DNA of 64,000 nucleotides from Planctomycetales bacterium (GCA_030612725.1 JAUWNJ010000002.1:64542-128541); one strand, 5' to 3'. Positions 6,276 through 62,792 are shown, numbered from the stretch's first letter. The notes: a model not told the origin generated them from the sequence alone. Numbers and translations: made by a program.

Positions 6276-7102
6276 TATCGATTTTCCGCGACGAGTTCGG
6301 TAACATTATCGTGGACGAGTTTGTCGAACCCGTCGCCGGTCGGAAAATTCCCGAAGACAACCACCTTTGCCCCAAGCCGCTCGGCCAGCGCATCCGCAAG
6401 CCGCCTGCCAGCCGGCAGATTTGCGACGACAATCTTCACCCCTGCCGACCTTGCCGAGCGGACGGCGGCGTCAATCTCGCTGATACCGGCGGTGTCGGAA
6501 CTTTTGAACGTAGCGACTACGTTCAGGCCAAGTCGCCGGCAAAAGGCGGCCTGATGCCTGCTGGCGAGCACCGGCGAACCCTTGAGGTTCGCCGATTCTA
6601 TCCGCCCCTTCGCCCACTCGCCCAGCGACGCCATTCTCCCTGCTACCTTTTCCAGCCTGGCGTCGGCGTCGGCGCGGTCGAGCAGACCGGCGGCTACGAA
6701 GGCCTCGGCAGTCTGCCGGCAGGCGGAGAGGTAACTTTCCGGCTCGCACAGCCCGCCGCCAATTTTTATCGAGGCGATTTGCAGACCGGCGGCTTTGAGG
6801 TCCGACAGTTTCGCCTCCAGCGATTCCTGGAAGTCCTGTCGCAGCAGCAACCGGCAGGTGCGGAGTTGCTCAATCTGCGAGGGGCGGATGTCGAAATGTC
6901 CGGGGCACATCCCAGGCCCGGCCAGGCGGAGGACGGGTTCGCCGTCTTCGAGGAACTCCCGCGCGGCGCATTCCAGATACGACGTACTCGCCGCCACTTC
7001 AGACGGTTCATCCTTACTGCAACCTGTGATTGCGATCGTCGCCGATACGCAAAACGCCAGAATCACTCGATAACGTTTCAATGTGCATACCCTTTCATTC
7101 AT
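6275..7102 (-). CDS. metal ABC transporter substrate-binding lipoprotein (ZnuA/TroA family)
   Basis: Lipobox ITGCS after a signal peptide and a TroA-like body. The start is set at internal MNERV; the longer ORF to 7267 is probably an over-extension. Its stop overlaps the ATPase start by 1 nt. Confidence 0.75.
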   Translation of the reverse strand: MNERVCTLKRYRVILAFCVSATIAITGCSKDEPSEVAASTSYLECAAREFLEDGEPVLRLAGPGMCPGHFDIRPSQIEQLRTCRLLLRQDFQESLEAKLSDLKAAGLQIASIKIGGGLCEPESYLSACRQTAEAFVAAGLLDRADADARLEKVAGRMASLGEWAKGRIESANLKGSPVLASRHQAAFCRRLGLNVVATFKSSDTAGISEIDAAVRSARSAGVKIVVANLPAGRRLADALAERLGAKVVVFGNFPTGDGFDKLVHDNVTELVAENR

Positions 7103-7110
7103 TACGCGCG

Positions 7111-7812
7111 TTACAGGCCCGTATGCATCTGTCCGTCCGTGGTTCGCACCCGGGAAATCACGCCTTGAGTGCCGAGGCCACGATACCACGAGCATCGAGC
7201 CACCGGCGCACGCGGCGGCACGCCAACGTCCTTGTCGTATCTCGGCCCGACACTCCAGATGACCCAACTAATCGGGCACGGAATTATTTTGCCGTTCACG
7301 TCGGTGGGTCTCCAGACATTATCATAAGATTGCCCAGCCAGTGTCTGCGGATCGGCGTCAGGATCATCACGGGGGAAATCATCAGGCACCCAGACGCTCT
7401 TGGGGACCGCGCCGTTGTTGTGAAGACCCCAGCCGGGTGCCTTGTACTTATAAGTATGTCCGGGGTTGAAGACGTCCTCCATGTTGGCCGACATCTTCGT
7501 ATCGGGTTGGCCCGCTGCCAGCCATTGCCTCTGAACCAACTCGATCGGCAACTCGCAGAAATGCTCCCACTTTTCGGTCTCGCAGTACGTTCGCATGGGT
7601 GGGTAGGTCTGCTTGTTCTGCGAGGCGTAGCATTCCAGTGCGGTGGCGATGCCCCGCAGTTCCGCCATTGCTTTGGTTACCTTCGCCATCTCTTTTGCCG
7701 CCGAAAGGCTCGGCAGCAGGATCGACACCAGCAGAGCAAGGATTGCGACAACCACAAGTAACTCTACAAGCGTAAAACCCGCGAGATGATCATTGTTTCG
7801 AAGCATAATCAC
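7111..7812 (-). CDS. prepilin-type N-terminal cleavage/methylation domain protein (planctomycete pseudopilin-like)
   Basis: N-terminus MIMLRNNDHLAGFTLVELLVVVAILALL matches the G|FTLVE prepilin signal. Confidence 0.75.
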   Translation of the reverse strand: MIMLRNNDHLAGFTLVELLVVVAILALLVSILLPSLSAAKEMAKVTKAMAELRGIATALECYASQNKQTYPPMRTYCETEKWEHFCELPIELVQRQWLAAGQPDTKMSANMEDVFNPGHTYKYKAPGWGLHNNGAVPKSVWVPDDFPRDDPDADPQTLAGQSYDNVWRPTDVNGKIIPCPISWVIWSVGPRYDKDVGVPPRAPVARCSWYRGLGTQGVISRVRTTDGQMHTGL

Positions 7813-7872
7813 CGACCACGGCCAAGTCTTCGACTTGACCGTGCCACCCTGAAATTATCATGCTATAGTCCA

Positions 7873-8826
7873 CTACCGACTTCTGCGGCGGCGTCTGAAT
7901 ATCGCCAGGCTGCCGAGGGTCAGCAACAACAGCGAGGCAGGTTCGGGAACGATGCCCAGCATATCGCTGCCGCCGTCGTAACCCATCACCCACATCCGGT
8001 ATCCGGTGGTGTATCCCTCTTCCTGGTTGAATATACCGACCACGTCAAACGTGCCACCAAGATTGCTGGGGTCGCTAAAGACATCGGACATTCCCAGACG
8101 GCAAGGCAACGTCAGGCCGGTGCCGTCAGTGATCTCCATCTCTACGTCAGGACCCCACAGATTCGCATCGACGAAACTGACGTCGTTGATGCGGACCAGC
8201 CTCGCCTGGTAATACTCCCCACCGATTAAGCGTGTGTCGTCGAAGATGTCATTGTTCGAGGCGTCCTTGACATCCGCCAGCGTAATCACTTCCGGCGCGG
8301 GCAGCCCCGGCGTGCTGTCCAGCCATTCGACGGTGAAGTCCATTCCCGAAGCGGAACAGTGTCGCTCGTTGACGTTGGTCTTGCCGTTGTACCCCTTGAT
8401 GTAGCCGGTAACGCGCACCCTGTCGCCCATGCGGATGCGGTGAGCGTCGTCGTAGTTCAGACGGTTCAACTCGTCGTTCCACTCCGTTTCCGTATAGTCC
8501 ACGTCGCCCATCCTGCTGTATTTTTGTCCCATCCAGCAGGCGGTCCCGGCGTGGTCGCCACCTTCGCCCTGAACGTAAATCTGCCACTGGCCGCCCATCC
8601 ATGCAGGGGCGTCGTAGGCCGGGTCGAGCATATCCTCGGGGTTGTTCAGCACGACCCCCTCCAACACAACCGTCAGCGTTGCACCCTCCTTCAGGTGCGT
8701 GGCGTGACCGGTGTTATCGACAGCCTGAATTTCCCAGTGAGTTTCAGCCTGTACCATCGCTGCGACGAGCAGCAGTGCAACTGTTCCAATAACGAGACTT
8801 TTTGTAACTTTTGCGAGCATGAGCAT
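7873..8826 (-). CDS. PEP-CTERM sorting domain-containing secreted protein
   Basis: Signal peptide MLMLAKVTKSLVIGTVALLLVAAMVQA and a C-terminal IVPEPASLLLLTLGSLAIFRRRRRSR. Confidence 0.75.
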   Translation of the reverse strand: MLMLAKVTKSLVIGTVALLLVAAMVQAETHWEIQAVDNTGHATHLKEGATLTVVLEGVVLNNPEDMLDPAYDAPAWMGGQWQIYVQGEGGDHAGTACWMGQKYSRMGDVDYTETEWNDELNRLNYDDAHRIRMGDRVRVTGYIKGYNGKTNVNERHCSASGMDFTVEWLDSTPGLPAPEVITLADVKDASNNDIFDDTRLIGGEYYQARLVRINDVSFVDANLWGPDVEMEITDGTGLTLPCRLGMSDVFSDPSNLGGTFDVVGIFNQEEGYTTGYRMWVMGYDGGSDMLGIVPEPASLLLLTLGSLAIFRRRRRSR

Positions 8827-9095
8827 TCTCCTTTCCTCTGACTTCGAGCACATAACAAAAAGAACTTCATCGCAGTCCGTAGGACTCTTCGAGAGCACGC
8901 AGAGAGAGCAGAGAAAAGAAACAAAAAAGTTTTTTTATTTGTTCTCTGCGTTTTCTGCGTTCTCTGCGTTCATCTTAATTATGGTCTCCTGATCGCCATT
9001 CGGGTTGAGCATTGACACAATCAAGCCACGGCGGTATTAACTATCTCTGGAAAGTTAATACTTCCGACGGCGATATTAAGAAAGAAAAAAATCGT

Positions 9096-17406: not shown

Positions 17407-17908
17407 TTTCTATTCCTTTTTCGACCGGGCAGTAATACCGCCGGAAACACACCAGTTCTTGCGGTATCGATAAAATCTGATCTGAAATCCTGTTTTATGA
17501 AACTCAACCAACGCATACGAATTTATCATCGACTCGACTACTGTCAAAGTGGTAATTGTCGCTTTTCTTATCCACATCAAGTCAAGCCTCGCTTGCAGAG
17601 AAACTTCCGAAGCAAAGTTTTTTTTCATTCACCGGTTATGCACAAAATTTCCACGAAGCGCGACCGTGAAAAGAAAAATTAGCAGGGATGCAGGGGATAA
17701 AGAGGATAAAACATCTTTTCAAAATTCAAACAGGTGCTTTTCTTCTTATTGAAATTCGCTTTTTATCCCGTGCATCCCCTGCATCCCTGCTAATTCTTTT
17801 CCCTGTATTCCTGCTGGTTCTTGAAAATTTGTTGTTTGACAATCGCCGTTCGAAAATCGACAATTGGCAATCGACAATCGGCAATTGGCAATTGAAGGAG
17901 TTTTTACA
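17407..17908. promoter_or_regulatory. putative oriC and dnaA promoter region
   Basis: Perfect DnaA box TTATCCACA at 17568-17576 and TTATGCACA at 17636-17644, plus 7/9 variants (TTATCCTCT rc near 17702, TTATCCCGT near 17766). A perfect 22-bp inverted repeat (17677-17698 / 17774-17795) flanks the AT-rich tract. Confidence 0.6.
17838..17895. repeat. tandem CAATYGRCAAT array in the 5' leader of the 17909 gene (family also at 19125-19160 and 46461-46504)
   Basis: gacaatcgccgttcgaaaatcgacaattggcaatcgacaatcggcaattggcaattg. Confidence 0.7.
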
Positions 17909-18571: not shown

Positions 18572-18573
18572 TT

Positions 18574-18648
18574 ATTGCGGATTGTGGATTGTGGATTGCG
18601 GATTGCACACACTCGCTGATTTGTTGGAATCCGCAATCCACAATCCGA
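18574..18648. repeat. inverted repeat built of GGATTGTGGATT units (terminator-like hairpin)
   Basis: Left arm tgcggattgtggattgtggattgcggattgc, right arm gaatccgcaatccacaatccg, about 20-nt loop. Starts 3 nt after the stop of the 17909 gene. Confidence 0.75.
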
Positions 18649-18813
18649 AATTGGTAAAAAATCGGCTCAAACCTTACACAACATTCGTGCCGAAATGCAG
18701 TGCTGGAAAAATTAGTCAGACACGATTGACTCCGTATCGTTATGATTGTAGAATACGTGCGGTTAGATGAGGGATTTGTCAGCGATTTGGTTAGATGATT
18801 ATTGAGGTAGGAA

Positions 18814-28175: not shown

Positions 28176-28877
28176 ATGGTTATTTCCGGTTCTAATCCGT
28201 GGGGGCGGTTGAACAGCGGGCCTTTGATTGCGCCGTCGCTGCTGGCGTGTGATTTCGCGCGTGTCGGCGAGCAGGTTGACGCTGTCGTCGCCGCCGGGGC
28301 AGAGGTTCTGCACGTCGATATAATGGACGGGCATTTTGTACCGAATCTGTCGATGGGGCCTGGGTTCGTCAAGAGCATCCGCGCCTTTACCGATTGCCCG
28401 CTCGACGTGCATATTATGGTGTCCGACCCGCTTTATTTCGCCGAACGGTTCGCCGATGCCGGTGCTGATTCGGTTACTTTCCACATCGAAGCCGCCGATA
28501 AACCACGCGAAATAATAGATTTGCTTCGATGCCGAGGTTTGGGGGTGGGCGTGTCCGTAAAACCCACTACACAGGCCGGGGCGATTGACGGTATAATACA
28601 GGACGTCGATCTGGTATTGGTGATGACGGTCGAGCCTGGTTATGGTGGGCAGAAGTTTATGGAAGATCAGTTACCGAAGATCGAGCGGATTCGCTCCGTA
28701 CTTCGTCCTGAGCAGCGTCTCCAGGTCGATGGCGGGATTAATCCGATTACTGCCGCCCGTTGCGCATCCGCCGGTGCGGACGTATTCGTAGCAGGCGCAA
28801 ACATCTTTGGCAGCAGCAATATCGCCGAAGCAATAACTCTTTTACAGAATGTAGTTACAGAGAAAATAGATAAATAA
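28176..28877 (+). CDS. rpe: ribulose-phosphate 3-epimerase
   Basis: LIAPSLLACDFARVGE, HVDIMDGHFVPNLS, MTVEPGYGGQKF. Confidence 0.9.
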   Translation: MVISGSNPWGRLNSGPLIAPSLLACDFARVGEQVDAVVAAGAEVLHVDIMDGHFVPNLSMGPGFVKSIRAFTDCPLDVHIMVSDPLYFAERFADAGADSVTFHIEAADKPREIIDLLRCRGLGVGVSVKPTTQAGAIDGIIQDVDLVLVMTVEPGYGGQKFMEDQLPKIERIRSVLRPEQRLQVDGGINPITAARCASAGADVFVAGANIFGSSNIAEAITLLQNVVTEKIDK

Positions 28878-29152
28878 AAATCCAAAATACGAATATCGAA
28901 ATACGAAACAAATTCGAATGACCGAATTCTCAAAATCCGAAACGAACTTGGACAACCAAAATCCAAAACGAAAGCACTATGACCTTGAAGATCGAACCTT
29001 TGAGAAAACGAGCGTGTCGCTTTGGTTCAGGAAAGCACTGAACTGATGAACATTTTCGGTTCCATCCTTCGCAAGAGCGAATGATATTTTGAACATTTGA
29101 ATTTCGTATTTCGAATTTGTTTCGTATTTCGGATTTCGATATTCGGATTTAT
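28876..29152. repeat. MITE-like palindromic element, AATCCGAAA/ATACGAAA family, copy 1 (rpe|accD)
   Basis: Left arm aatccaaaatacgaatatcgaaatacgaaacaaattcgaatgaccgaattctcaaaatccgaaacg and right arm ...ttgaatttcgtatttcgaatttgtttcgtatttcggatttcgatattcggattt are imperfect reverse complements. About 150 bp core. No ORF. Confidence 0.8.
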
Positions 29153-36588: not shown

Positions 36589-36598
36589 AATTAATTAG

Positions 36599-36682
36599 CG
36601 GTCAGCAATCAGCGTTCAGCAGTCAGCAATTAAGTGTGTTACTTTTTCTTTTACTGACCGCTGATTGCTGACTGCTGATTGC
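36599..36682. repeat. inverted repeat built of CAGCAATCAG units between ptsH and ptsI
   Basis: Left arm gcggtcagcaatcagcgttcagcagtcagcaat, right arm actgaccgctgattgctgactgctgattgc. The same unit family recurs at 60586-60709. Confidence 0.75.
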
Positions 36683-37490: not shown

Positions 37491-37506
37491 GCTTCTGCTC
37501 CTGTTT

Positions 37507-37549
37507 GGTAATTGGTAATTGGTAATCAGTAATTGGTAATTGGTAATCC
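37507..37549. repeat. tandem heptamer array (GGTAATT x6) in the ptsN 5' leader
   Basis: ggtaattggtaattggtaatcagtaattggtaattggtaatcc, 17 nt upstream of the ptsN ATG. Related arrays at 42240-42319 and 55186-55225. Confidence 0.75.
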
Positions 37550-37569
37550 GGCATCGAACACTTTACTGA

Positions 37570-37908
37570 TTACTCGTTTCCTGCCACTGAATCATTAATC
37601 TGTTCATGTGTCGGTCCATGTCGGTCGCGGATTTTGTCCTTATGGCGTCGCAGCTGCTCTTCCATTTTATGGATGCACTGATCCACGCATGCGTACATAT
37701 CCCGTCCACGATGGTGGGCGACGAAGGTGCTTTTACGTTTTCCTGACGCGACGATCTCGACGTAATGCTCTCCGGCATCGACGGCGAATGTTATATCGAC
37801 GGACTGCAAACCGTTATAAAAATGCGGCAGCCCGTTCACCTTTTCCCGGGCATACTCTTTCATTGCGTCTGTCAGTTCCACGTGTCTGGCCACAACGGAT
37901 ACATTCAC
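37570..37908 (-). CDS. hpf: ribosome hibernation promoting factor
   Basis: Short HPF/RaiA (112 aa): MNVSVVARHVELTDAMKEYAREKV... Confidence 0.9.
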   Translation of the reverse strand: MNVSVVARHVELTDAMKEYAREKVNGLPHFYNGLQSVDITFAVDAGEHYVEIVASGKRKSTFVAHHRGRDMYACVDQCIHKMEEQLRRHKDKIRDRHGPTHEQINDSVAGNE

Positions 37909-41747: not shown

Positions 41748-42239
41748 ATGAGCGTGAACGAATATCAAGGCAAGTTGATCGCGCCGGCCGGTGCGAAGTT
41801 CGCCGTTATCGTCAGCCGGTTCAACGAGTTCATTACATCGAAACTGATGTCGGGTGCAATTGACGCGCTGACCCGTCACGGTGCAGGCGACAGCGACATT
41901 GACGTGGTATGGTCGCCGGGATGTTTCGAGATTCCGCTGTTATGCCGGCGTCTGGCAGAATCCGGAAAGTATGCCGGAGTGATTTGCCTGGGGGCGGTGA
42001 TTCGCGGCGGGACGGAGCATCACCGATACATCGCGTCGGAAGTTACCAAGGGAATAGCAGCCACATCTCTGGCAACCGGCCTGCCGTGCATCTTCGGCAT
42101 CCTGACCTGCGACACCATCGAGCAGGCGGTAGAGCGGGCAGGAACCAAGAGCGGAAACAAAGGCGCCGACGCAGCCATTGCCGCTATCGAAATGACTAAC
42201 CTGATGGGGCAACTGCCTGCCACGAATTCCACGAAGTAA
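41748..42239 (+). CDS. ribH: 6,7-dimethyl-8-ribityllumazine synthase
   Basis: [20 protein letters not shown]...[10 protein letters not shown]. Confidence 0.9.
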
Positions 42240-42319
42240 GTAATTCGTAATTGGTAATTCGTAATTCGTAAAAAAACCGATGCTCTGTTACCAATTACGA
42301 ATTACCAATTACGAATTAC
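42240..42319. repeat. 27-bp near-perfect inverted repeat of TAATTCGTAATTGG units between ribH and nusB
   Basis: Left arm gtaattcgtaattggtaattcgtaattcgta, loop aaaaaaaccgatgctctg, right arm ttaccaattacgaattaccaattacgaattac. Confidence 0.8.
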
Positions 42320-42346
42320 AAAATTCATGGAACGGAGTTTTTCGGA

Positions 42347-42763
42347 GTGATTGAGCACCACAAAGCAAGGCTGATGGCGATGCAGGGTCTTTGTTGCCTG
42401 GACGTTCAGGGCGATGACGGCATGGATGCAACGCTGGGATTTTTCCGCGACGGTAAGGAAAGCCTCGAAACCACCGACGAGGCGGAATGCATGATTCGCG
42501 GCGTTCTTGCCGAAAGGAACGAAATCGACGAACTCCTCAGCGGGCAAAGCCGGCACTGGAAAGTCGCTCGCATGGGGCTTCTGGAGCGAAATATCCTGCG
42601 GCTGGCTGTTTGGGAACTACTGACAACCCACACGCCGAAAAAAGTCGTCATCAACGAAGCAATTCGCCTGGCGAAGGAATTCGCCTCGGCTGAATCGTCA
42701 AAGTTCGTCAACGGCGTACTCGATGCAACAGCGGAAAGAATCACAGAGAATAGTAGTCAGTAG
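42347..42763 (+). CDS. nusB: transcription antitermination factor NusB
   Basis: NusB fold: ARLMAMQGLCCLDVQ...ERNILRLAVWEL. Confidence 0.9.
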   Translation: MIEHHKARLMAMQGLCCLDVQGDDGMDATLGFFRDGKESLETTDEAECMIRGVLAERNEIDELLSGQSRHWKVARMGLLERNILRLAVWELLTTHTPKKVVINEAIRLAKEFASAESSKFVNGVLDATAERITENSSQ

Positions 42764-42932
42764 TAAAATCCGAATATCGAAATCCGAAATCCGAAACAAT
42801 ATCGAAATACGAATGGCCAAAATTAGAAACACCATTTTCAAGTTGTCGTATAGTTTGAAACATTTGAAAATTCGGATTTTGAATTTGTTTCGGATTTCGG
42901 ATTTCGGATTTCAATATTCGGATTTAAGTACC
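42764..42932. repeat. MITE-like palindromic element, AATCCGAAA/ATACGAAA family, copy 2 (nusB|ftsY)
   Basis: Left arm aaaatccgaatatcgaaatccgaaatccgaaacaatatcgaaatacgaatggccaaaat, right arm aaaattcggattttgaatttgtttcggatttcggatttcggatttcaatattcggattt. Starts immediately after the nusB stop. Confidence 0.8.
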
Positions 42933-53387: not shown

Positions 53388-53531
53388 CTGTGTTCGCGTT
53401 TGCGCGCGCAAACGCGAACGTAAAAATCGGAGGAAATGAAAATTCCAAAAAAACTTTTCCCAAGGCCACCAAGGACTTATGGCGTCGCTATCCGTTTTGT
53501 GTTCGCGTTTGCGCGCGCAAACGCGAACGCA
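53388..53531. promoter_or_regulatory. two copies of a 33-bp direct repeat, each containing a perfect 28-bp palindrome, upstream of the PEP-CTERM protease gene
   Basis: gttcgcgtttgcgcgcgcaaacgcgaac at 53392-53419 and 53501-53528, 109 bp apart. They lie 136 and 245 nt upstream of the protease start. Confidence 0.6.
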
Positions 53532-53711
53532 AAAGTTAATACGGAGAGAATAGGGACTAGGGACTTGGGACTAGGGACTTGGAAAAAAGAAACAGATGGG
53601 CCGTTTAGGCAAGATGGGCAAAATAGGCAATGGCGGATTTTTTAAAATGGGCGTAAAAATGACACTAAAATACGCAAATCTATGCACGCCAAGGAGTTAT
53701 GGGTTTTGCAA

Positions 53712-53820
53712 TTTTTCCCAATTGTTCCGAATCGTTCCCAATCGTTCCGAATCGTTCCCAATCGTTCCCAATCGTTCCCAATTGTTCCGAATTGTTCCGT
53801 TTCGTTCCGTTTCGTTCCAC
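53712..53820. repeat. tandem array of about 11 copies of the 10-mer ATCGTTCCCA (variants ATTGTTCCGA, TTCGTTCCGT)
   Basis: Unit boundaries were read directly from the sequence. No spacers, so this is not CRISPR-like. Confidence 0.85.
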
Positions 53821-53892
53821 AACGGCGTGGCCCGATTCCGGTATCCGCCTGTGTGCGGCTCGAAAGAAGCGAGGGCCAGCCTGTCGCCAAAG

Positions 53893-54354
53893 TTACATAT
53901 CTTCGTGGTCAATAAGCATGAAGCCGCGTTTTGTCAATATCTGAGCGGACAGGACGTGGTCGTCGGTGTGAAAGACCAGCACCGGATAATCGTTGTGCCG
54001 GAGGAACAGCGGATAGGCAAACTGGATGTTCAGTTCGGCGGCAACGAGCGCCTTGCAGACCTGGCTGAGCGTGTCGATATCGTGCAATGCGACGGCCAGT
54101 ACGTCGGATTCGGTGAATGCCGCACCGGCGTCGATGAGTTTCACACGCGCCTTACCGACGTCGGTGAAGATCATGCGCACCACAGCCCAGTCTGCGGAAT
54201 CCACCACGGACAGACCTGCAATTTCAACGTCGGCTTCGTCCAGAGTAGTAAGCATCTTGCTCAATCTTCCGACGCGGTTGGGCATGAAGATATTGAACTG
54301 GCGGATGGACGGGGTTTCGTACGCTCGCTCGATTTGAGGTCCGGACATGGCCAT
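53893..54354 (-). CDS. ACT domain-containing protein (tandem ACT-like repeats)
   Basis: Two beta-alpha-beta-beta-alpha-beta-like halves, e.g. QFNIFMPNRVGRLSKMLTTLDEADVEI. Confidence 0.5.
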   Translation of the reverse strand: MAMSGPQIERAYETPSIRQFNIFMPNRVGRLSKMLTTLDEADVEIAGLSVVDSADWAVVRMIFTDVGKARVKLIDAGAAFTESDVLAVALHDIDTLSQVCKALVAAELNIQFAYPLFLRHNDYPVLVFHTDDHVLSAQILTKRGFMLIDHEDM

Positions 54355-54432
54355 AACGAGAGATACTATAACCTCAAAAGGTCTGAAAGCAAAGACAGCA
54401 AGAGATTTTTCTTTCAGCGGGTGATGGTTTTT

Positions 54433-55098
54433 TTAATGTATAAGCGCTTTTACGCCCAGCGCGATACCCATGACGGTTACTGCTACTCCGCATAGACCGT
54501 TGGCGATTCTGAAAAATGTCGGTCCGATTTTCTGCGGCCTGAGGCGGACAAGCACAGTAATGAAAGCGAACCAACATGTCATTCCACATGAAACGGCGGC
54601 TACTCCGAGCCACATTCCCACGCTTCCCGCTGATACATCGGCTCCCTGGAGCCAGGCCGGTCCGACTCCCACCCACCAGAGAAACGTGGCAGGATTCAGG
54701 AACGTCAGAATAGCGCCGGTCAAGAGGTCTCCCCCGACACCTGTGCGTCGATGTCGCATTCGTTCGGCGCGGATGGCGGCCTGGACTCGTCGGGACGGAA
54801 CAACCGCCTTGCGAAGGATGAACAGTCCAAGAAGCAGGATGATACAGGCAGCGGGCAGCTCCACGTACTGCCGGATCGAATCGACGTCCGTGTATTTCAA
54901 GAGCGTGCTTCCGCCCCACATCACCAGGACCACTTCGCAGGTTTCGAAGGCTACCGATCCGATACCGACCCACATGGTCCTCGTCCAGTGCATCACCAGT
55001 CCGCGACGAATGGCGATCATATTGACCGGACCGACGACGGGCGCCGCCGCCATCAGACCCAATCCGAACGCCCATGCTAGAACTAAAATACTCGGCAC
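54433..55098 (-). CDS. LysE/RhtB family amino-acid exporter
   Basis: Six TM helices and a LysE-type N-terminal motif. The overlapping 264-aa ORF in another frame is judged spurious. Confidence 0.8.
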   Translation of the reverse strand: MPSILVLAWAFGLGLMAAAPVVGPVNMIAIRRGLVMHWTRTMWVGIGSVAFETCEVVLVMWGGSTLLKYTDVDSIRQYVELPAACIILLLGLFILRKAVVPSRRVQAAIRAERMRHRRTGVGGDLLTGAILTFLNPATFLWWVGVGPAWLQGADVSAGSVGMWLGVAAVSCGMTCWFAFITVLVRLRPQKIGPTFFRIANGLCGVAVTVMGIALGVKALIH

Positions 55099-55294
55099 GT
55101 CTTTTTCGCTCCTGAAAAGTTCCGGCTATGCTAACCGCTGACGACACAATAAAAAAGAGCGAGTCCACGAATTACCCAAATTTTGTAAATCAGTAATTCA
55201 CGATTCCGTTACCAATTACCAACCCGCAGACTGTTTTTTCGATTTCGGAGGCGTTATGATGTCGGTACTGAAGTTTTGTGAGCAGCAGGGATGA

Positions 55295-56284
55295 ATGAGC
55301 GTGAAACTGTCTGGTAAGTATCAGAAGAGATGGGTTCTTGTCGGCTTGTGCCTTTTCGGTGTGGTGCTGATGCTTCCACCGGCGGGAAGTGTGCGGGGGT
55401 TTTGTCGTCGTGCTGCCCGTCCCGTTCTGGTTCCGATGAGTATCTTCGGCTCGCATGTTACCGTTCATCTTCGTTCGCGTATGGACGAAATGACGGTATC
55501 GTCGTCGTCCGACGCCGATGAGCGGGCCCAGGCCTTTCGCGGGCAGATACTACTGATGCGGCAGATGATCGAAGACCAGCGCCGAGAAATTCGGACGCTC
55601 ACTAATTGGAACGGTACACTTGAAGGATTCAGGTGCCGTCTGCTTCCCGCGCGCGTTATCGCCGCCGATCCTTTGTCGCTGCGCAACCGCCGACTTATCG
55701 GCGTCGGCAGTCGCAAGAGCGTCGGGCCTGGTGACCTTGTAACCACACGTCGGATAATTCACGAATCCGCCGCGCCGCTGCCGGACAAACTCACCGTCCT
55801 GGGACGAAATTACGTCGTCGGGTGCGTCAGTAACTCGTCAGTCTGTTCGGCGACGCTGACGCTTGTAACGGATCCGCATTTTAAGGCTTCAGCCAAACTT
55901 TGGCGCATGGTCGAGCCGGGCAGGCAGCGAACTATTTTTCTGACCGTCAAGACCGGCGGGGTGGAGAAGCGGACCTTCAAGCACAGCCGAACTACTCCCG
56001 GACCTGAACCTGTTGGGAATCCCATTCCCGTCGAGGCAATCGGTAACGGGCGTGAGGTCGTGCTGGAGCACGTGCCTTCCAATCACAACGTGCGAGCCGG
56101 GGACATCCTTACGTCGGCCGGTTCGTCGGGTCTGTTTCCCCTTGGTCTGACCATAGGCCGAGTCAGTCGGGTTGAACGGGACAAAAACGACGCCCATTTC
56201 GTTATGGTGTTTGTGGAACCCCTTGGAGATTTGCGGCGACTTCAAAATGTGTATATTGTTCTTCCTGATCGAGGTACGGATTGA
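55295..56284 (+). CDS. mreC: rod shape-determining protein MreC
   Basis: N-terminal TM helix, a coiled coil, and beta-barrel domains. It sits immediately upstream of mreD. Confidence 0.8.
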   Translation: MSVKLSGKYQKRWVLVGLCLFGVVLMLPPAGSVRGFCRRAARPVLVPMSIFGSHVTVHLRSRMDEMTVSSSSDADERAQAFRGQILLMRQMIEDQRREIRTLTNWNGTLEGFRCRLLPARVIAADPLSLRNRRLIGVGSRKSVGPGDLVTTRRIIHESAAPLPDKLTVLGRNYVVGCVSNSSVCSATLTLVTDPHFKASAKLWRMVEPGRQRTIFLTVKTGGVEKRTFKHSRTTPGPEPVGNPIPVEAIGNGREVVLEHVPSNHNVRAGDILTSAGSSGLFPLGLTIGRVSRVERDKNDAHFVMVFVEPLGDLRRLQNVYIVLPDRGTD

Positions 56285-56325
56285 TACTGCAACACAACTT
56301 TGTTTTTATGGAACAACAGGGATAT

Positions 56326-56456
56326 GCGAAATACGAATATCGAAATCCGAATGTTCAAAACATCTACGGTAAGACCTGCCGGACGGTGTTTTGGAGATTC
56401 AAATTTGGGTCATTTGATATTGTTTTGAATTTCGAGATTCGGATTTCGGATTTAAA
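56326..56456. repeat. MITE-like palindromic element, AATCCGAAA/ATACGAAA family, copy 3 (mreC|mreD)
   Basis: Left arm gcgaaatacgaatatcgaaatccgaatgttcaaaacat, right arm atattgttttgaatttcgagattcggatttcggattt. Confidence 0.75.
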
Positions 56457-56534: not shown

Positions 56535-57074
56535 ATGAGATGGTATCATTTTATAATTCTGGTGTTTGTCGCTGTGGTTGGCGTTGTCGTGCAATCGACG
56601 GCGGGGCAGTTGTTGTGGTTTCGCACGGAGTTAGGATGGGTCGGCCCTGAACTGCTCGCAGCGGTGGCAGTGTTCATAGCATTGTATGCCACAAGCGCTA
56701 CTGATGCGGCATTGTCCGGGTGGATACTGGGATTCGCGGTGGACCTGAGCGTCGGTGGATCGAGCATGGGATTGTTGGCGTTGCTGTACGCTGCCGGTTG
56801 CTGGGGGATATTCCGCATTCGGGAGGTCTTTTTCCGCGACCGGATGATGACACAGATAATCATTGGGTTTATTTTTTGCGTGTTTGTTTATGAATTGTGG
56901 ACGGTCTATGACATCATGGTCGGCGGAAGGGCGTCTGGTGAGTATTTCCGACCGGCCCTTCAGGCATTGGGATTGTCGATTTATACTGCGGTGTTGACTC
57001 CTCCGGTATGTGCGCTGTTAAAACGCCTGCGAGGATTTGTGCTTCCCATGCCGCCGATTCGTGAAAGAAGATAA
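56535..57074 (+). CDS. mreD: rod shape-determining protein MreD
   Basis: Five-TM small membrane protein between mreC and mrdA. Confidence 0.75.
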   Translation: MRWYHFIILVFVAVVGVVVQSTAGQLLWFRTELGWVGPELLAAVAVFIALYATSATDAALSGWILGFAVDLSVGGSSMGLLALLYAAGCWGIFRIREVFFRDRMMTQIIIGFIFCVFVYELWTVYDIMVGGRASGEYFRPALQALGLSIYTAVLTPPVCALLKRLRGFVLPMPPIRERR

Positions 57075-57077
57075 TTA

Positions 57078-59018
57078 ATGTATGAGCGCCGCCTGAAAAT
57101 ATTTCTGATAGTGGTGGTGGTCGCCATATTTGTAATCGTAGGCCGGCTCGCCCATTTACAGTTGATCCAGGGTGAGCAATACCGCCGCCGGGCGGGTGAA
57201 CTGCTGATTTACGGTAATTTGCTTCCGACGGTTCGGGGAAAGATACTGGACCGCATGGGGCGGGTGTTGGCTTACGACAAACCTTGCTTTGATTTTTGCC
57301 TGGACTATCGCATGTTGAAGGGCCCTGGTTCGACCGCCGCTGAGCGCAGGGCCTACAAGCGTTGGGTCCGTGGCCGGGTTCGTGAAATACGCAAGCGCGA
57401 GAAGGTTTCCAGGCAGCGGGCGGAGGAGATTTTCGAGCGTCGCTACGAGCAGACGTGGGAACTGTCAGCCGAACTGACCGGGGCGACGCGAAACGAGATA
57501 TTCCGCAAAGCCGAGAATGCCGTTCGCCGCATCGAGGCGATTCGACGCGGCGTCGGCGGACCGATTCGAGAGGAGAACCTCGCCCATGCCGTGGTTCCGG
57601 GTCTGAATGAAGCCACAGCAGTGAAGGTCAGGGCGCGTCTCGACGAGATGATCGGCGCTTCGGTTCACCCGTCGCATCAACGATGGTATCCACGCGGACA
57701 TGATGCCTGTCACATCGTCGGGCGGCTCAGGCCGTTGAAGGCCGAAGAGGTCCGCCAGGCCCGCGCAATATGGAAAACCGATGTCCCCATAGAGGCGAAA
57801 TTGGCCGGTAATCTCTCCGGCGACCTTGTCGGTTCCGTCGGTATCGAGAGGCTTTGCGAGGGTTTGCTTCGAGGAAGCAGGGGATATCGTCGTGGCCGGC
57901 GAACCGGTCGGATGCTCAATGAAGTTCATGCCCGCTTCGGTTCGGACGTGCATCTTACGATTGATATTGAACTTCAACAGGCATTGGCCGGTCTCCTCGG
58001 CAGGCCCGGCGCGATCGTGGTACTGGACGTTCCGACCGGAGAGGTGCTGGCGATGGTGTCGCTTCCGACCTATGACGTGAACACCTACCGGCGCGAGTAT
58101 GACCGGCTTAGCAGGGACCAGGTTCGTCTGCCGTTGTGGGATCGGACAGTGGCGATTCGTTATCCGCCCGGTTCGACGGTCAAGCCCCTGGCTGCACTGG
58201 CAGGTCTTGAGACCGGCGTAATTACGCCGGAGAAAACATTTCACTGCAAGGGATACCTTCACAACCCCCATGCCTTCCGCTGCTGGATATGGAAGTATCA
58301 CCGGGGGCACGGCGATTTGAACGTGGTAGGCGCTCTTGAGCAGAGTTGCAACGTATTTTTCTACAATGTTGGTGAACGCCTTGGTGTTCGGCGTCAGGTT
58401 GAGTGGTTGGGTAAGTTCGGTTTTGCCGACAGGCCGGGAACGCTGCTGCCGGGGGAGCGCAAAGGGCTATTGCCCGATCCCCGTCGCGTTCGTAACGTCG
58501 GCGAGGCCCGTCAACTTGCCATTGGTCAGGGGCAGGCAGAAGTAACGCCCATGCACGTAGCCAACGCCATGGCGACTATCGCCCGCGACGGGGAGTTTCG
58601 CTCGCCGCTGCTGGTGCGAGAGTTGAAGAGCAAGCAGCAAGTCCGTCGCATTCCGGTATCGGCTGAACACTTCAGACTGGTGAAGGAGGGGTTATATAAG
58701 GTTGTCAATTCCCCTCATGGCACTGCCTATAAGCATGCACGTGATACTGATATTGAGATTTGCGGTAAGACGGGCACAGCCGAGACGCCTGACCGGCGGA
58801 TCAGGATTGATTCCGACGGCGACGGGAAACTCGACCGCTGGGGGCCGGCTGTTTGCACCGGCGACACCGCGTGGTTCGCCGGTTTCGCGCCGTATCGAAA
58901 TCCGCGAATCGCTTTCGTGGTGATGATCGAATACTCCGACACCGGCGGCGGGCAGACTTGCGGACCGATTGGGAGACAGGTCGTAAGACTATGCCGGGCC
59001 TTCGGGTATCTGAAATGA
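57078..59018 (+). CDS. mrdA: penicillin-binding protein 2 (peptidoglycan D,D-transpeptidase)
   Basis: Transpeptidase motifs STVKP, SCN (EQSCNVFF) and KTGTA, with an N-terminal TM anchor. Confidence 0.9.
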   Translation: MYERRLKIFLIVVVVAIFVIVGRLAHLQLIQGEQYRRRAGELLIYGNLLPTVRGKILDRMGRVLAYDKPCFDFCLDYRMLKGPGSTAAERRAYKRWVRGRVREIRKREKVSRQRAEEIFERRYEQTWELSAELTGATRNEIFRKAENAVRRIEAIRRGVGGPIREENLAHAVVPGLNEATAVKVRARLDEMIGASVHPSHQRWYPRGHDACHIVGRLRPLKAEEVRQARAIWKTDVPIEAKLAGNLSGDLVGSVGIERLCEGLLRGSRGYRRGRRTGRMLNEVHARFGSDVHLTIDIELQQALAGLLGRPGAIVVLDVPTGEVLAMVSLPTYDVNTYRREYDRLSRDQVRLPLWDRTVAIRYPPGSTVKPLAALAGLETGVITPEKTFHCKGYLHNPHAFRCWIWKYHRGHGDLNVVGALEQSCNVFFYNVGERLGVRRQVEWLGKFGFADRPGTLLPGERKGLLPDPRRVRNVGEARQLAIGQGQAEVTPMHVANAMATIARDGEFRSPLLVRELKSKQQVRRIPVSAEHFRLVKEGLYKVVNSPHGTAYKHARDTDIEICGKTGTAETPDRRIRIDSDGDGKLDRWGPAVCTGDTAWFAGFAPYRNPRIAFVVMIEYSDTGGGQTCGPIGRQVVRLCRAFGYLK

Positions 59019-59036
59019 ATGAAATCATTACGCAAA

Positions 59037-59200
59037 ATTCGAATATCGAAATCCGAAATTCGAAACAATATCGAAATACAAATGACCAAAATCCGAAACA
59101 TAAATACACAAACATTTTCAATGTTCTGTGTTTGGGACATTAGAAAATTCGGATTTTGAATTTGTTTCGTATTTCGAGATTCGTATTTCGGATTTAAAAA
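59037..59200. repeat. MITE-like palindromic element, AATCCGAAA/ATACGAAA family, copy 4 (mrdA|rodA)
   Basis: Left arm aaattcgaatatcgaaatccgaaattcgaaacaatatcgaaatacaaatgaccaaaatccgaaac, right arm aaaattcggattttgaatttgtttcgtatttcgagattcgtatttcggattt. Internal hairpin aacatt-ttc-aatgtt. Confidence 0.8.
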
Positions 59201-59263
59201 AGTGGTTAATGTAATTGGCTATGATGATTTATACATGAGAAACCTTTGTAAAGTTGTGCTGTC

Positions 59264-60580
59264 ATGTTCGGATGGTTGAAGACATATTTTCGCGGAATTA
59301 GTTGGCCTATCATTGTGGCGATGGGCGCTCTGATGGTTATCAGTGTCCTTTCCGTCAGGGTGGCTGAACAGGCCGATCCGTCTGATGCGCTGTTGCGAGG
59401 AAGCACGGTCCGGCAGATGGTTTATGTCTCGGTGGGCGTTGCCGGCTTTATTATCGCGACGGTCATCCCATACCAGCGAATCGGGCGGAGCGCGTATTTC
59501 TTCTTCGCGCTGAACCTGGCGTTGCTGGTTCTTGTATTGTTTCTGCCGGCGATTCGGAACAGCCACAGGTGGATTAATCTGAAGTTCTTCAAGGTCCAGC
59601 CAAGCGAATTGGCCAAGTTGACCTACATCCTTGCCCTGGCGTGGTACCTGCGATACAGGGATAATTATCGCCGATTCTTCGGGTTTCTCCCCCCGTTTAT
59701 ACTAACGTTGGTGCCTGCGGTGTTGATCCTGGTTGAGCCGGACCTGGGCACGACGCTTCTGTTGTTTCCCACGTTATTTTTCATGCTCTTCATGGCCGGT
59801 GCGAAACTCCGCCATCTGCTGCTGGTCGTCGCTATCGCCGGCGTTGTGATATTCTTCCCCGTACCCCGAAACGTTACAGACCAAAATCCTTCGGTTATCG
59901 CTGAGCGGAATGTTCTGGCGTACTGGCATGGTAAGATCGGCGGGCGGGAGTATGTTATCTCGGCTGCTCCGTTGACGATTATGAAACACCATCAACTTTC
60001 CCGCATCGAAGGTTGGCTATTGCAGCCTGACCCGCTTGTGGAAGTGAGCAGAAGCAAAGGGTTCCAACTCCAGAACTCGATAATCATTCTCGGCTCCGGC
60101 GGGTGGAGAGGTCAAAACGTGCTGGAGCAGAAAAACCTCTATTTCCGCATGTTACCGGACGACCACACCGACTTTATATACGCAATCATCGGCGGCGAAT
60201 GGGGGTTTCTGGGATGCGCGGGTGTGATGCTGATTTATATGGCGATTTTCTTCTGCGGCACCGAAATCGCCGGAACGACCGACGACCCCTTTGGCCGACT
60301 TCTGGTGGGGGGGGGGTTGGGGCTGTTGCTGGCGCAGGTACTGATTAACGTCGGTATGACAATGGGACTGGCGCCTATTACCGGTATGACTCTTCCTATG
60401 ATCAGTTACGGCGGTTCAAGTATGCTGGTCAACTGTGTCGCGATGGGGCTGTTGATAAACGTCGCTCAACGAAGACCTGTTCTTCTAGGCCCAAAACCGT
60501 TTGAATACGGCAGCCGAGCCGGCGGCGAATCTATGTCCTACGGACCTTTGTTCGAATGGGGACGAAGGCGAAAAAGGTAG
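59264..60580 (+). CDS. rodA: SEDS-family peptidoglycan glycosyltransferase RodA (with extended periplasmic loop)
   Basis: FtsW/RodA 10-TM pattern. About 70 extra residues lie in the large loop compared with typical RodA. Confidence 0.85.
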   Translation: MFGWLKTYFRGISWPIIVAMGALMVISVLSVRVAEQADPSDALLRGSTVRQMVYVSVGVAGFIIATVIPYQRIGRSAYFFFALNLALLVLVLFLPAIRNSHRWINLKFFKVQPSELAKLTYILALAWYLRYRDNYRRFFGFLPPFILTLVPAVLILVEPDLGTTLLLFPTLFFMLFMAGAKLRHLLLVVAIAGVVIFFPVPRNVTDQNPSVIAERNVLAYWHGKIGGREYVISAAPLTIMKHHQLSRIEGWLLQPDPLVEVSRSKGFQLQNSIIILGSGGWRGQNVLEQKNLYFRMLPDDHTDFIYAIIGGEWGFLGCAGVMLIYMAIFFCGTEIAGTTDDPFGRLLVGGGLGLLLAQVLINVGMTMGLAPITGMTLPMISYGGSSMLVNCVAMGLLINVAQRRPVLLGPKPFEYGSRAGGESMSYGPLFEWGRRRKR

Positions 60581-60585
60581 AAAAA

Positions 60586-60709
60586 GCGATCAGCGATCAG
60601 CAGTCAGCAAAAGATGAAAAAGACCGCTGTGCGTCACGTAGTGATGCTACGCATAGCACCGCGTAGCGATACTACGTACCACTACGTGGAACGCTGATTG
60701 CTGATTGCT
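60586..60709. repeat. nested hairpin element (outer CAGCAATCAG-unit stem, inner cacgtagtg/cactacgtg and gctacgc/gcgtagc stems) between convergent rodA and the downstream gene
   Basis: Left arm agcgatcagcgatcagcagtcagcaaaag, right arm gaacgctgattgctgattgct. Inner palindromes were read directly from the sequence. Confidence 0.75.
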
Positions 60710-60714
60710 AAATG

Positions 60715-61134
60715 TTAATGATGTTGAAAATAATAAATCCACCATATTGCTGAAACCAACGTGTAGGTCAGGAATAGACCCCAGCATCCGATTTCGGTGA
60801 ACAGGCGTTTGCGAAATTTGAGAATGATTATCGAAGCCATGGCTACAACGAGAATCTTGAAGATTACAAGCAGGGCAACATCGTTCATTAGAGGAGCGGC
60901 GATTGGATTGGCCTCTATGAACCCGCCGGCCTTGACAGCCATCAGGGTGAATACCAGGTCGAAGACGTTGACTATCCATAGCATCACGAGTATGAGAGTT
61001 ACTCGTCTGGAACGCCGCGCGTACGGATCTTCACGGGCCTGTTTGAACCACCTCCACAATCGCGCGAACAGCGACCCTCTCCGGGCGGGACCAATTCGTA
61101 TAATGGTTTGGTCTCGTTCCATAGAATCACGCAT
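60715..61134 (-). CDS. small membrane protein (DUF5658-like)
   Basis: TM helices with a D-L-x-x-T...GG-x-E-x-NP-like motif (FDLVFTLMAVKAGGFIEANP). Confidence 0.45.
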   Translation of the reverse strand: MRDSMERDQTIIRIGPARRGSLFARLWRWFKQAREDPYARRSRRVTLILVMLWIVNVFDLVFTLMAVKAGGFIEANPIAAPLMNDVALLVIFKILVVAMASIIILKFRKRLFTEIGCWGLFLTYTLVSAIWWIYYFQHH

Positions 61135-62088: not shown

Positions 62089-62700
62089 AAAGAAGAAGAA
62101 AAGGAATAGCAGGATTACAGGGATTACCGGATTACAGGGATTTTTATTTTTGCTGAAAAAAGAAGAGGAAAAAGAAAGGCAGGGGGATTGCAGGGATTGG
62201 TTTTAATTCTCAAATCTTCTTACTTGCAAAGAAGACGAGCCGAAATTTATCAGCAGCGCAACCAGCAACCTGGAGGCTTTTAAGTAACTGATAGTCTGTG
62301 CTCGGTGCTCCTTAATCGTATCGACAACGGCCTTCAGTTCGACAATAACCTTTCCTTCAACAACCATGTCAGGCCTGTATGTACCACAAAGCATTCCCTC
62401 GTAAAAAACTTCGAATTCACGCTGTGACTCAAATGAAATTCCTGTGAGCATCAATTCCTTGGAAAGCGCTTTGTGATATGTCGATTCGGTGAAACCGGCG
62501 CCAAGCGTTCCGTGAACTTCATGAGCGGCCCCGATAATGTTATAAGTAAGTGCGTTAATGGGATCGTCAGCGTCCAAACCACCCCGAACACCAACAACAC
62601 CCCCGACTTCTTTTTCTGTTTCTTTTGTTCCTTTTAACAAAATAAAAATCCCTGTAATCCGGTAATCCCTGTAATCCTGCTATTCCTTTTCTTCTTCTTT
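62089..62700. mobile_element. cassette: GxxExxY gene bounded by a perfect 62-bp inverted repeat, abutting the 3' end of tRNA-Ser
   Basis: IR-L at 62089-62150 is exactly the reverse complement of IR-R at 62639-62700 (aaagaagaagaaaaggaatagcaggattacagggattaccggattacagggatttttatttt). Extra GGGATTG/CAGGGATTGG motifs at 62071-62086 and 62180-62199. Confidence 0.7.
62203..62640 (-). CDS. GxxExxY family protein (PD-(D/E)XK-like)
   Basis: YNIIGAAHEVHGTLGAGFTESTYHKAL (the GxxExxY motif), then ...VELKAV...LINFG. TTG start immediately adjacent to IR-R. Confidence 0.85.
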   Translation of the reverse strand: MLKGTKETEKEVGGVVGVRGGLDADDPINALTYNIIGAAHEVHGTLGAGFTESTYHKALSKELMLTGISFESQREFEVFYEGMLCGTYRPDMVVEGKVIVELKAVVDTIKEHRAQTISYLKASRLLVALLINFGSSSLQVRRFEN

Positions 62701-62707
62701 TCTTTAA

Positions 62708-62792
<85 letters not shown>

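Follow-up and report, generated by a model that had tools for sequence, protein, structure and literature searches.

We analysed a 64,000-nucleotide stretch of DNA from a Planctomycetales bacterium (GCA_030612725.1 JAUWNJ010000002.1:64542-128541), here called the window, and followed up a palindromic repeat element that lies in it between the genes mrdA and rodA. This element, copy 4 of a dispersed family, had been placed there by a preliminary description made from the sequence alone, and protein-family matches on either side bear out the location: mrdA, encoding penicillin-binding protein 2 (PBP2), occupies positions 57078-59018 of the plus strand (TIGR03423 pbp2_mrdA, 4.4e-122), and rodA follows on the same strand at 59264-60580 (TIGR02210 rodA_shape, 5.7e-92). 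Copy 4 takes up most of the 245-nt spacer between them. Sequence, GC content, BLAST and a family hidden Markov model (HMM) assign it to positions 59029-59201 of the plus strand, with HMM and BLAST matches placing its left bound at 59029/59032 and its right bound at 59196/59201; the repeat was thus correctly recognized in the earlier account, but the interval given for it, 59037-59200, was slightly too narrow. The element begins 10 nt beyond the mrdA stop codon and ends 62 nt before the rodA start. Its GC content of ∼30%, compared with 55% for the window, makes it an AT-rich island.

Copy 4 is a gene-less, imperfect palindrome. Its 49-nt arms (59035-59083 and 59147-59195) are 73% complementary, with shorter sub-arms reaching 88-94%, and Tandem Repeats Finder (TRF) reported period-7 arrays at 59035-59065 and 59165-59195. 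Read from its outer end, the left arm (59034-59100, plus strand) consists of the heptads AAATTCG-AATATCG-AAATCCG-AAATTCG, then AAAC and the inner sub-arm AATATCGAAATACAAATGACCAAAATCCGAAAC. The right arm (59130-59196, plus strand) pairs with it as an inverted repeat and reads inner sub-arm GTTTGGGACATTAGAAAATTCGGATTTTGAATTT, GTTTCG, and the heptads TATTTCG-AGATTCG-TATTTCG-GATTT. Between the arms lies a variable central loop of 29 nt (59101-59129), in which we read no open reading frame (ORF). The inner palindrome AACATT-TTC-AATGTT pointed out previously is present in this loop (59111-59125), but it is specific to copy 4, is not conserved in the other copies and is short enough to have arisen by chance. 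The predicted RNA fold of the plus strand has a free energy of -52.9 kcal/mol (z = -5.0; 0 of 200 shuffled sequences folded as well), and that of the minus strand -48.7 kcal/mol (z = -4.1). A motif scan predicted no sigma-70 promoter within copy 4. At the gathering threshold, Rfam returned one tRNA as its only match in the window and no rRNA, and hence no known RNA for copy 4; in a permissive scan of the element the best hit scored 24.4 bits against a threshold of 211, to a plant miRNA hairpin model.

The reading of copy 4 as a member of a repeat family is right, and beyond what chance would give. The family HMM found exactly four copies in the window, each with E < 1e-21, and copy 4 is the best conserved of them, as had been proposed: it has the top score, 119.5 bits (E = 2.4e-36 by nhmmer, 59032-59196, plus strand), against 107.2, 79.7 and 72.3 for the others, although its match is partly by construction, as it is among the 39 sequences from which the profile was built. 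Independent support comes from its pairwise alignment with copy 2, whose arms it had been said to share. The two are identical at 139 of 161 aligned bases (86%; 91% for the left arms and 87% for the right) and differ by one 7-nt indel in the right arm, among other changes. The alignment score of 96 far exceeds that of shuffled sequences (6.0 ± 2.5) and of the reverse complement (48); the homology is therefore positional and oriented, not a mere sharing of low-complexity sequence.

All four window copies lie between co-directional genes, near stop and start codons. Copy 1 (28877-29152, plus strand; HMM E = 4e-24) separates rpe from accD, identified by the Pfam families Ribul_P_3_epim and Carboxyl_trans; its centre (28950-29075) is non-repetitive and far longer than those of copies 2-4, with 169 nt between the main arms, which is too short for a gene. 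Copy 2 (42760-42931, profile match 42764-42915, plus strand; E = 1.5e-32) is located between nusB and ftsY (Pfam NusB and SRP54). Copy 3 (56320-56455, plus strand; E = 7.6e-22) follows mreC (55295-56284) and precedes an ORF of 179 amino acids (56535-57074) at the expected position of mreD. This ORF had no Pfam or NCBIfam match, and two ORFs upstream of mreC (region 53596-55141) had no Pfam match.

The consensus of 39 aligned copies reads AAATYCGAA-nnn-CGAAATCCGAAATYCGAAAC-AAWWTC...CAAAAC on the left and, after a variable loop of 0-60 nt, GTTTTG...GAWWTTGTTTCGRATTTCG-nnn-TTCGRATTTCGRATTT on the right. The termini are sharp (AAATYCGAA...TTCGRATTT). Copy 4 fits this consensus: it has the family termini and the GAAACAAWWTC / GAWWTTGTTTC junction, and each of its arms has four to five CGAA-N3 heptads, as seen in AAATTCGAATATCGAAATCCGAAATTCGAAACAATATC ... 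GAATTTGTTTCGTATTTCGAGATTCGTATTTCGGATTT. Across the family an arm comprises about nine 7-nt units in phase, in which CGAA (or TTCG) is nearly invariant and the 3-nt fillers are drawn from a small vocabulary (ATY, GCA, TAT, ACT). The arms then pass into a conserved inner sub-arm, whereas the columns of the loop are unconserved and its length ranges from 0 to about 60 nt.

We asked whether pairing or sequence is conserved in these arms. When the two arms of each of 23 elements were compared, CGAA positions were complementary in 96-100% of cases, and the fillers of heptads 2 and 3 in 9-35% of elements. RNAalifold, applied to 28 diverse copies, returned a consensus structure of 22 pairs, all of which fall within CGAA blocks or the CGAAACAA/TTGTTTCG junction; a compensatory change was seen in none of the 22, and the covariation term was +0.33. 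Likewise, the sense strand folded better than its complement in 20 of 31 co-directional cases, which is not significant (Wilcoxon p = 0.065). The covariation analysis suggested in the preliminary description thus lends no support to selection for RNA structure; what is conserved is the sequence array in both arms.

To see how far the family extends, we searched metagenome contigs with the 19-mer pattern GAWWTTGTTTCGNATTTCG, which matched at least 120 loci. By a rough estimate, about a hundred chance matches of the 19-mer alone are possible in a collection of such size. Among the matches listed, however, 119 of 120 loci extend to 24-174 nt of similarity with copy 4, and the matches are therefore real. 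The contigs among these listed matches range from 31 to 66% GC; 18 viral contigs carry a match, and a distant planctomycete (L008; 53% RodA identity, 66.5% GC) has three. The searches gave about 65 full-length elements (median length, 145 nt). Thirty lie between co-directional genes, nine in divergent and five in convergent spacers, 14 at contig edges and eight nominally within ORFs, the last probably a product of crude ORF calls. Typically, no more than tens of bases separate them from the stop and start codons of their neighbours, and they take either orientation relative to transcription (15 same, seven opposite); solo arms and truncated copies exist. Flanking direct repeats in 62 elements were no more frequent than in a shuffled-pairing control, i.e. 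there is no target-site duplication above chance. An NCBIfam scan of 148 flanking ORFs gave diverse housekeeping families only, without taxonomic signal. Four high-GC contigs contain prepilin-type ORFs of ∼270 amino acids, some with an H-X9-DG motif, which are typical of the Planctomycetes-Verrucomicrobia group. The cyanobacterial HIP1 motif was not enriched in element-bearing contigs. We found no match to the family in plasmid or phage collections or in 5,426 complete E. coli genomes (blastn, low-complexity filter on), and an exact-sequence literature search returned unrelated primers only.

The turnover of the element could be followed at orthologous sites in relatives from the genome collection, all planctomycete metagenome-assembled genomes. 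RodA identity to the window is 96% in L001, 91% in L002, 84% in L003, 83% in L004, 67% in L010 and 52-63% in L005-L009. The mrdA-rodA spacer holds an element of the copy 4 family in L001 (4000-4250) and L003 (3570-3797). In L002 (5330-5530) and L004 (9810-10000) it holds a different hairpin built of GCAGGGAT units, a family that also occurs in the window at 17674-17798. The spacer contains a GC-rich palindrome in L010 and hairpins of GATATTC units in L009, and is short and free of hairpins in L005-L008 (64-70% GC). Divergence from the window at four-fold degenerate sites of rodA is 8% for L001, 26% for L002 and 41% for L003; the CGAAATN and GCAGGGAT versions of the spacer are therefore distributed out of step with rodA divergence, which suggests repeated replacement or recombination between lineages. 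The GC-rich palindrome belongs to a family of its own, GGTGGCACGGTCAAGTCG...CGACTTGACCGTGCCACC, which we saw at the mreC junction of L004 (7235-7305), in the mrdA-rodA spacer of L010 (7020-7110) and once in the window, around 7831-7845.

Copy 3 is missing from L001, L002 and L003, in which hardly any sequence separates mreC from the next gene; the mreC spacer of the window also has ∼40 nt and ∼75 nt of extra flank that the relatives lack, so that there is no clean empty site for this copy. In L001 (4025-4200), identity to copy 4 over the inner ∼105 nt of the element is 88-89% after flipping and 72-77% in direct orientation, while the outermost parts of both arms (18-34 nt) keep their orientation, matching better when direct. 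This is what one would expect had the two arms recombined with each other and so inverted the inner part. The element is under some constraint: the difference of 16% between copy 4 and the L003 copy is less than the 41% at four-fold degenerate sites of rodA. For L001, the element differs by about 11-12%, and the rodA four-fold sites by 8%. Given the absences of copy 3, the differences among spacers and the inner inversion in L001, gain, loss, replacement and internal flipping of the element are shown to take place within the time over which close relatives have diverged.

Some relatives of copy 4 carry a gene between their arms. Iterated local searches of the window and the fetched loci found five GxxExxY genes and nine genes of the 23S_rRNA_IVP / four-helix-bundle type (TIGR02436, PF05635). 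An inverted repeat matching at 17 or more of 20 positions brackets 10 of these 14 genes, compared with two of 250 size-matched control ORFs, and 12 of 14 once the arms in L104 and L105 are added; the arms are made up of heptad arrays whose units are of many types. Three loci have arms of the copy 4 family itself. L105 has a PF05635 gene (8184-8545) between arms at 8062-8154, matching positions 4-97 of the profile, and 8534-8624, matching positions 66-159 (∼1e-15 each). L040 has such arms at 2817-2894 and 3106-3189, plus 3287-3306, with a 23S_rRNA_IVP gene. In L104, arms at 395-461 and 1017-1086 enclose a nested, complete gene-less element (442-611) and a 23S_rRNA_IVP gene (624-1034); they are followed, at 1516-1965, by a GxxExxY gene with arms of CACGAAG units. 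Of 13 further genes of these two families that were checked, nine lie within inverted repeats with periodic arms. The four-helix-bundle proteins match PDB entry 2RLD, a structure of five chains.

The window itself contains one cassette of the GxxExxY / PDDEXK_3 kind, at 62089-62700 on the minus strand. Its 94-nt arms (62089-62182 and 62607-62700) are 84% complementary and built of period-9 GGATTACAG units, its gene occupies 62203-62640 (minus strand; TIGR04256, 1.2e-38; PF13366 PDDEXK_3, 2.3e-37), and a tRNA gene identified by Rfam adjoins it at 62708-62792 on the same strand. The orthologous cassette of L001 (about 7050-7670) has an identical layout.

Collectively, we consider it probable that copy 4, ∼170 bp long and gene-less, belongs to a dispersed family of selfish palindromes and is a miniature of a cassette resembling the intervening sequences (IVSs) of rRNA genes; it is not a regulator specific to mrdA and rodA. 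Short gene-less copies would relate to the gene-carrying cassettes as miniature elements do to their full-length parents. The near-invariant CGAA every 7 nt may serve as an array of recognition sites for a trans-acting factor, possibly the protein encoded by the cassette. Lying within the mre/mrd operon, copy 4 would be co-transcribed and fold into a long hairpin, which, by analogy with the stems of IVSs, RNase III is predicted to cut, separating the mrdA and rodA parts of the transcript.

Several observations weigh against this interpretation. Only three gene-carrying elements have copy 4-type arms and none is from the window organism; the 64-kb window lacks a 23S_rRNA_IVP gene. The small genes might instead insert into pre-existing hairpins. 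The outer stem of many members consists of 4-bp helices split by 3 × 3 internal loops, a poor substrate for RNase III. When the 2,415 ORFs of the 138 loci, sampled as ∼0.9 Mb of contig fragments, were compared all against all by BLAST, they formed ordinary gene clusters only, with no transposase or REP-associated tyrosine transposase (RAYT) cluster and no recurrent neighbour gene. Finally, the S23p/23S_rRNA_IVP family is functionally uncharacterised (PMC4990558, 10.1101/2024.02.27.582315), and the searchable literature offered nothing on a mobility function of the GxxExxY family.

Copy 4 could also have been selected as an RNA hairpin that acts in cis within the mre/mrd operon, serves intercistronic processing or stabilisation and so sets the mrdA:rodA expression ratio. 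The very stable fold (-52.9 kcal/mol, z = -5), the location of all four window copies between co-directional genes near stop and start codons, the presence of some hairpin in the mrdA-rodA spacer of seven of 12 planctomycete loci besides the window, and the better folding of the sense strand in 20 of 31 co-directional cases would all suit such a role. We nevertheless think it unlikely: none of the 22 consensus pairs is compensatory and the filler triplets are mostly non-complementary, the strand bias is not significant (p = 0.065), and the elements occur in both orientations (15 same, seven opposite) and in nine divergent spacers. Moreover, L001, the closest relative, has the inner part in flipped orientation, the sequence of copy 4 also lies between unrelated genes across many genomes, and relatives at 52-63% RodA identity have short, hairpin-free spacers. 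An intrinsic (Rho-independent) terminator of mrdA is the least credible of the explanations considered here. A long hairpin does stand directly 3′ of the mrdA stop codon, but its stem is AT-rich and is followed by TTTAAAAAA with no T run, a terminator scan was negative within copy 4, and the family occupies both orientations and divergent spacers.

A role at the DNA level, in which a nucleoid-associated or chromosome-organising host protein reads CGAA every 7 bp and the palindrome is incidental, would account for near-invariant CGAA/TTCG at 7-nt spacing in both arms with variable, unpaired bases in between, for an element more conserved than synonymous sites at the larger evolutionary distance, and for an island strongly rich in AT where the genome has 55% GC. 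We found no candidate protein, however, and a 7-bp period is out of step with the helical repeat of DNA; solo arms and truncated copies also speak against such an array, and the presence or absence of the element among close relatives, together with the cassette link, fits a selfish element better. We therefore rate a binding array somewhat below the RNA hairpin. The remaining alternative, a local origin without movement, would make each element a slippage-expanded 7-nt microsatellite with a template-switched inverted copy, the planctomycete equivalent of the short tandemly repeated repetitive (STRR) sequences of cyanobacteria. Copies do differ by 7-nt indels, 22 of 79 TRF rows of the window have period 7, and period-7 arrays, with more than 40 different units and mostly simple tandem, dominate the contigs (62 segments vs 2-6 for periods 6 and 8-11). 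Yet positional homology runs through the non-repetitive inner sub-arms at different sites and in very different genomes, and the termini AAATYCGAA...TTCGRATTT are sharp; independent local origin is therefore largely refuted and seems to us very improbable, although slippage probably reshapes copies after they arrive.

Among known systems, the selfish family proposed here is closest to the IVSs. The IVS of Coxiella is a 428-nt selfish element of unknown origin in 23S rRNA, with terminal inverted repeats that form a 28-bp stem; its loop carries an S23p ORF, whose Xanthomonas homologue is a pentameric toroid of four-helix bundles, and it contains heptameric repeats in tandem, two or three depending on the strain (PMC4990558). 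It is excised by RNase III, as in Salmonella and Leptospira (PMC4990558). A survey of candidate phyla radiation (CPR) bacteria found 23S_rRNA_IVP ORFs in rRNA insertions, with ORF-containing and ORF-less versions at the same sites (10.1101/2024.02.27.582315). Like the IVSs of Coxiella, Leptospira, Xanthomonas and Brucella (PMC4990558), copy 4 has a long stem formed by terminal inverted repeats, with arms of 49 nt; its gene-carrying relatives L105, L040 and L104 have a PF05635 gene in the loop between copy 4-type arms. Tandem heptamers of variable number in the stem region (GACAGAT in Coxiella), the coexistence of ORF-containing and ORF-less versions (10.1101/2024.02.27.582315) and a presumed selfish nature are further points in common. 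In contrast to IVSs, copy 4 lies in the mRNA spacer between mrdA and rodA, not in helix 25 or 45 of 23S rRNA, lacks an S23p ORF and is multi-copy, with four copies in 64 kb.

The family also recalls the Correia/NEMIS elements, which are of the MITE type (for miniature inverted-repeat transposable elements): both are small, non-coding, AT-rich, intergenic, multi-copy sequences with inverted ends and insertion polymorphism, both are co-transcribed (presumably so for copy 4), and both have larger gene-carrying relatives with common ends. The arms of copy 4 are, however, made of repeated 7-nt units instead of a single terminal inverted repeat, and the larger relative encodes a four-helix-bundle protein (PF05635), not a DDE transposase. 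A classical MITE was rejected, with no target-site duplication in 62 elements and no related transposase in 138 loci. The ERIC (enterobacterial repetitive intergenic consensus) sequences, or intergenic repeat units (IRUs), of enterobacteria are 127-bp imperfect palindromes. Copy 4 resembles them in size, in being an imperfect palindrome over its whole length, in its transcribed intergenic sites and use of either orientation, in having variants with extra internal sequence (cf. copy 1), and in being conserved across genera in the absence of any known transposase; ERIC is not known to have heptad periodicity, occurs in another host phylum, and was rejected because the 5,426 complete, ERIC-carrying E. 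coli genomes gave no blastn match with the low-complexity filter on.

Heptad hairpin arms have a precedent in cyanobacteria. In stem-loop P6b of the Nostoc tRNA-Leu intron (PMC4476775), the arms consist of degenerate 7-nt repeats, length changes in steps of 7 nt, and repeat classes replace each other at one site, much as the CGAAATN and GCAGGGAT versions do between mrdA and rodA. There the units are TDNGATT and NNTGAGT, the site is a single intron and not dispersed, and the host belongs to another phylum; searchable papers report no link between cyanobacterial 7-nt repeats and S23p or GxxExxY genes. TAACTGA heptamer arrays, for their part, are common to Beggiatoaceae, cyanobacteria and Bacteroidetes and are unexplained (PMC4679880). 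The REP (repetitive extragenic palindromic)/REPIN-RAYT system (PMC3733652, PMC3116915) shares with our family short palindromic intergenic repeats of high copy number, the lack of target-site duplication and supposed recognition as hairpins, but its repeats are 20-40 nt long and GC-rich, compared with about 150 nt and AT-rich here. It was rejected in that the family ends (AAATYCGAA / TTCGRATTT) bear no GTAG or CGTC tag and no RAYT-like gene recurs among neighbouring ORFs. Cyanobacterial STRRs have units such as CCCCAGT, TTGGTCA and CAACAGT and heterocystous hosts; they were set aside because, although 7-nt tandem arrays are present, the unit is CGAAATN and the host a planctomycete. An integron attC or parS-like site was dropped because the core motifs do not seem to fit and the copies lie kilobases apart between housekeeping genes. 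Copy 4 thus is of a known kind, that of intergenic palindromic or IVS-like selfish repeats; the heptad-array arms, the broad distribution and the link to 23S_rRNA_IVP cassettes outside rRNA are new.

Hairpins with period-7 arms of other units occur elsewhere in the window: at 8900-8985 (TCTGCGT), 17674-17798 (GCAGGGAT, see above), 18572-18660 (GGATTGT), 36590-36679 (CAGCAAT), 37504-37573 and 42227-42332 (GTAATTG or GTAATTC), and 60585-60720 (GATCAGC). The arms of intergenic hairpins sometimes have period 8 or 9 instead. The TCTGCGT unit resembles the arms around the GxxExxY gene of L046 (6961-7002 / 7539-7580). In the 0.9 Mb of element-bearing contigs, we counted 62 strongly periodic segments for period 7 and 2-6 for each of periods 6 and 8-11; the period-7 segments, of which about a fifth are inverted pairs and most are simple tandem arrays, represent more than 40 unit types. 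One 7.7-kb viral contig (L148) has more than a dozen period-7 arrays, with units that include GGGTTCA, AGAGGTT, AGAGTTC and AGTAATC, and CGAA-heptad arms too. Other repeats were noted upstream of mreC in the window. At 53703-53825 a 10-nt unit, TTCCCAATCG / CAATCGTTCC, is repeated in tandem about 8-11 times (90% matches), with a GGGACTW heptad array just upstream (53545-53587), and two near-identical, GC-rich perfect palindromes, TGTGTTCGCGTTTGCGCGCGCAAACGCGAACG, stand 69 nt apart in a divergent spacer (53389-53425 / 53495-53531).

Heptad hairpins and 7-nt arrays were noted decades ago in cyanobacteria, Beggiatoaceae and Bacteroidetes, and our data show that they pervade planctomycete and other environmental contigs. 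As a speculation, to which we give a low but not negligible probability, all heptad hairpins and STRR-like arrays might be miniatures and footprints of one unrecognised class of mobile cassette, whose periodic inverted arms flank either an S23p-type four-helix-bundle gene or one for a GxxExxY PD-(D/E)XK nuclease. The toroidal pentameric four-helix-bundle protein would then read the arm, one 7-nt unit per subunit, and direct mobility or RNA processing, and the classical IVS of 23S rRNA would be the special case of a cassette that landed in rRNA. The searchable literature yielded no paper that describes the family or ties heptad hairpins to 23S_rRNA_IVP or GxxExxY genes.

For the host, copy 4 looks like a passenger in a tolerant spacer, and nothing suggests that it is important to mrdA or rodA specifically. 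The family to which it belongs is a sequence-conserved palindrome, not found in Rfam or the searchable literature, that occurs in at least two distant planctomycete lineages and in contigs of 31-66% GC. Genome annotation gains from recognising it, since its AT-rich islands could otherwise be taken for promoters, terminators, small RNA genes or DNA acquired by horizontal transfer. More broadly, the family links 7-nt tandem repeats, heptad-armed stem-loops that replace one another, and the 23S_rRNA_IVP and GxxExxY families of small genes. It leads to two predictions, namely that RNase III would cut operon mRNAs at heptad hairpins, and that the proteins of the cassettes would bind arrays of CGAA heptads.

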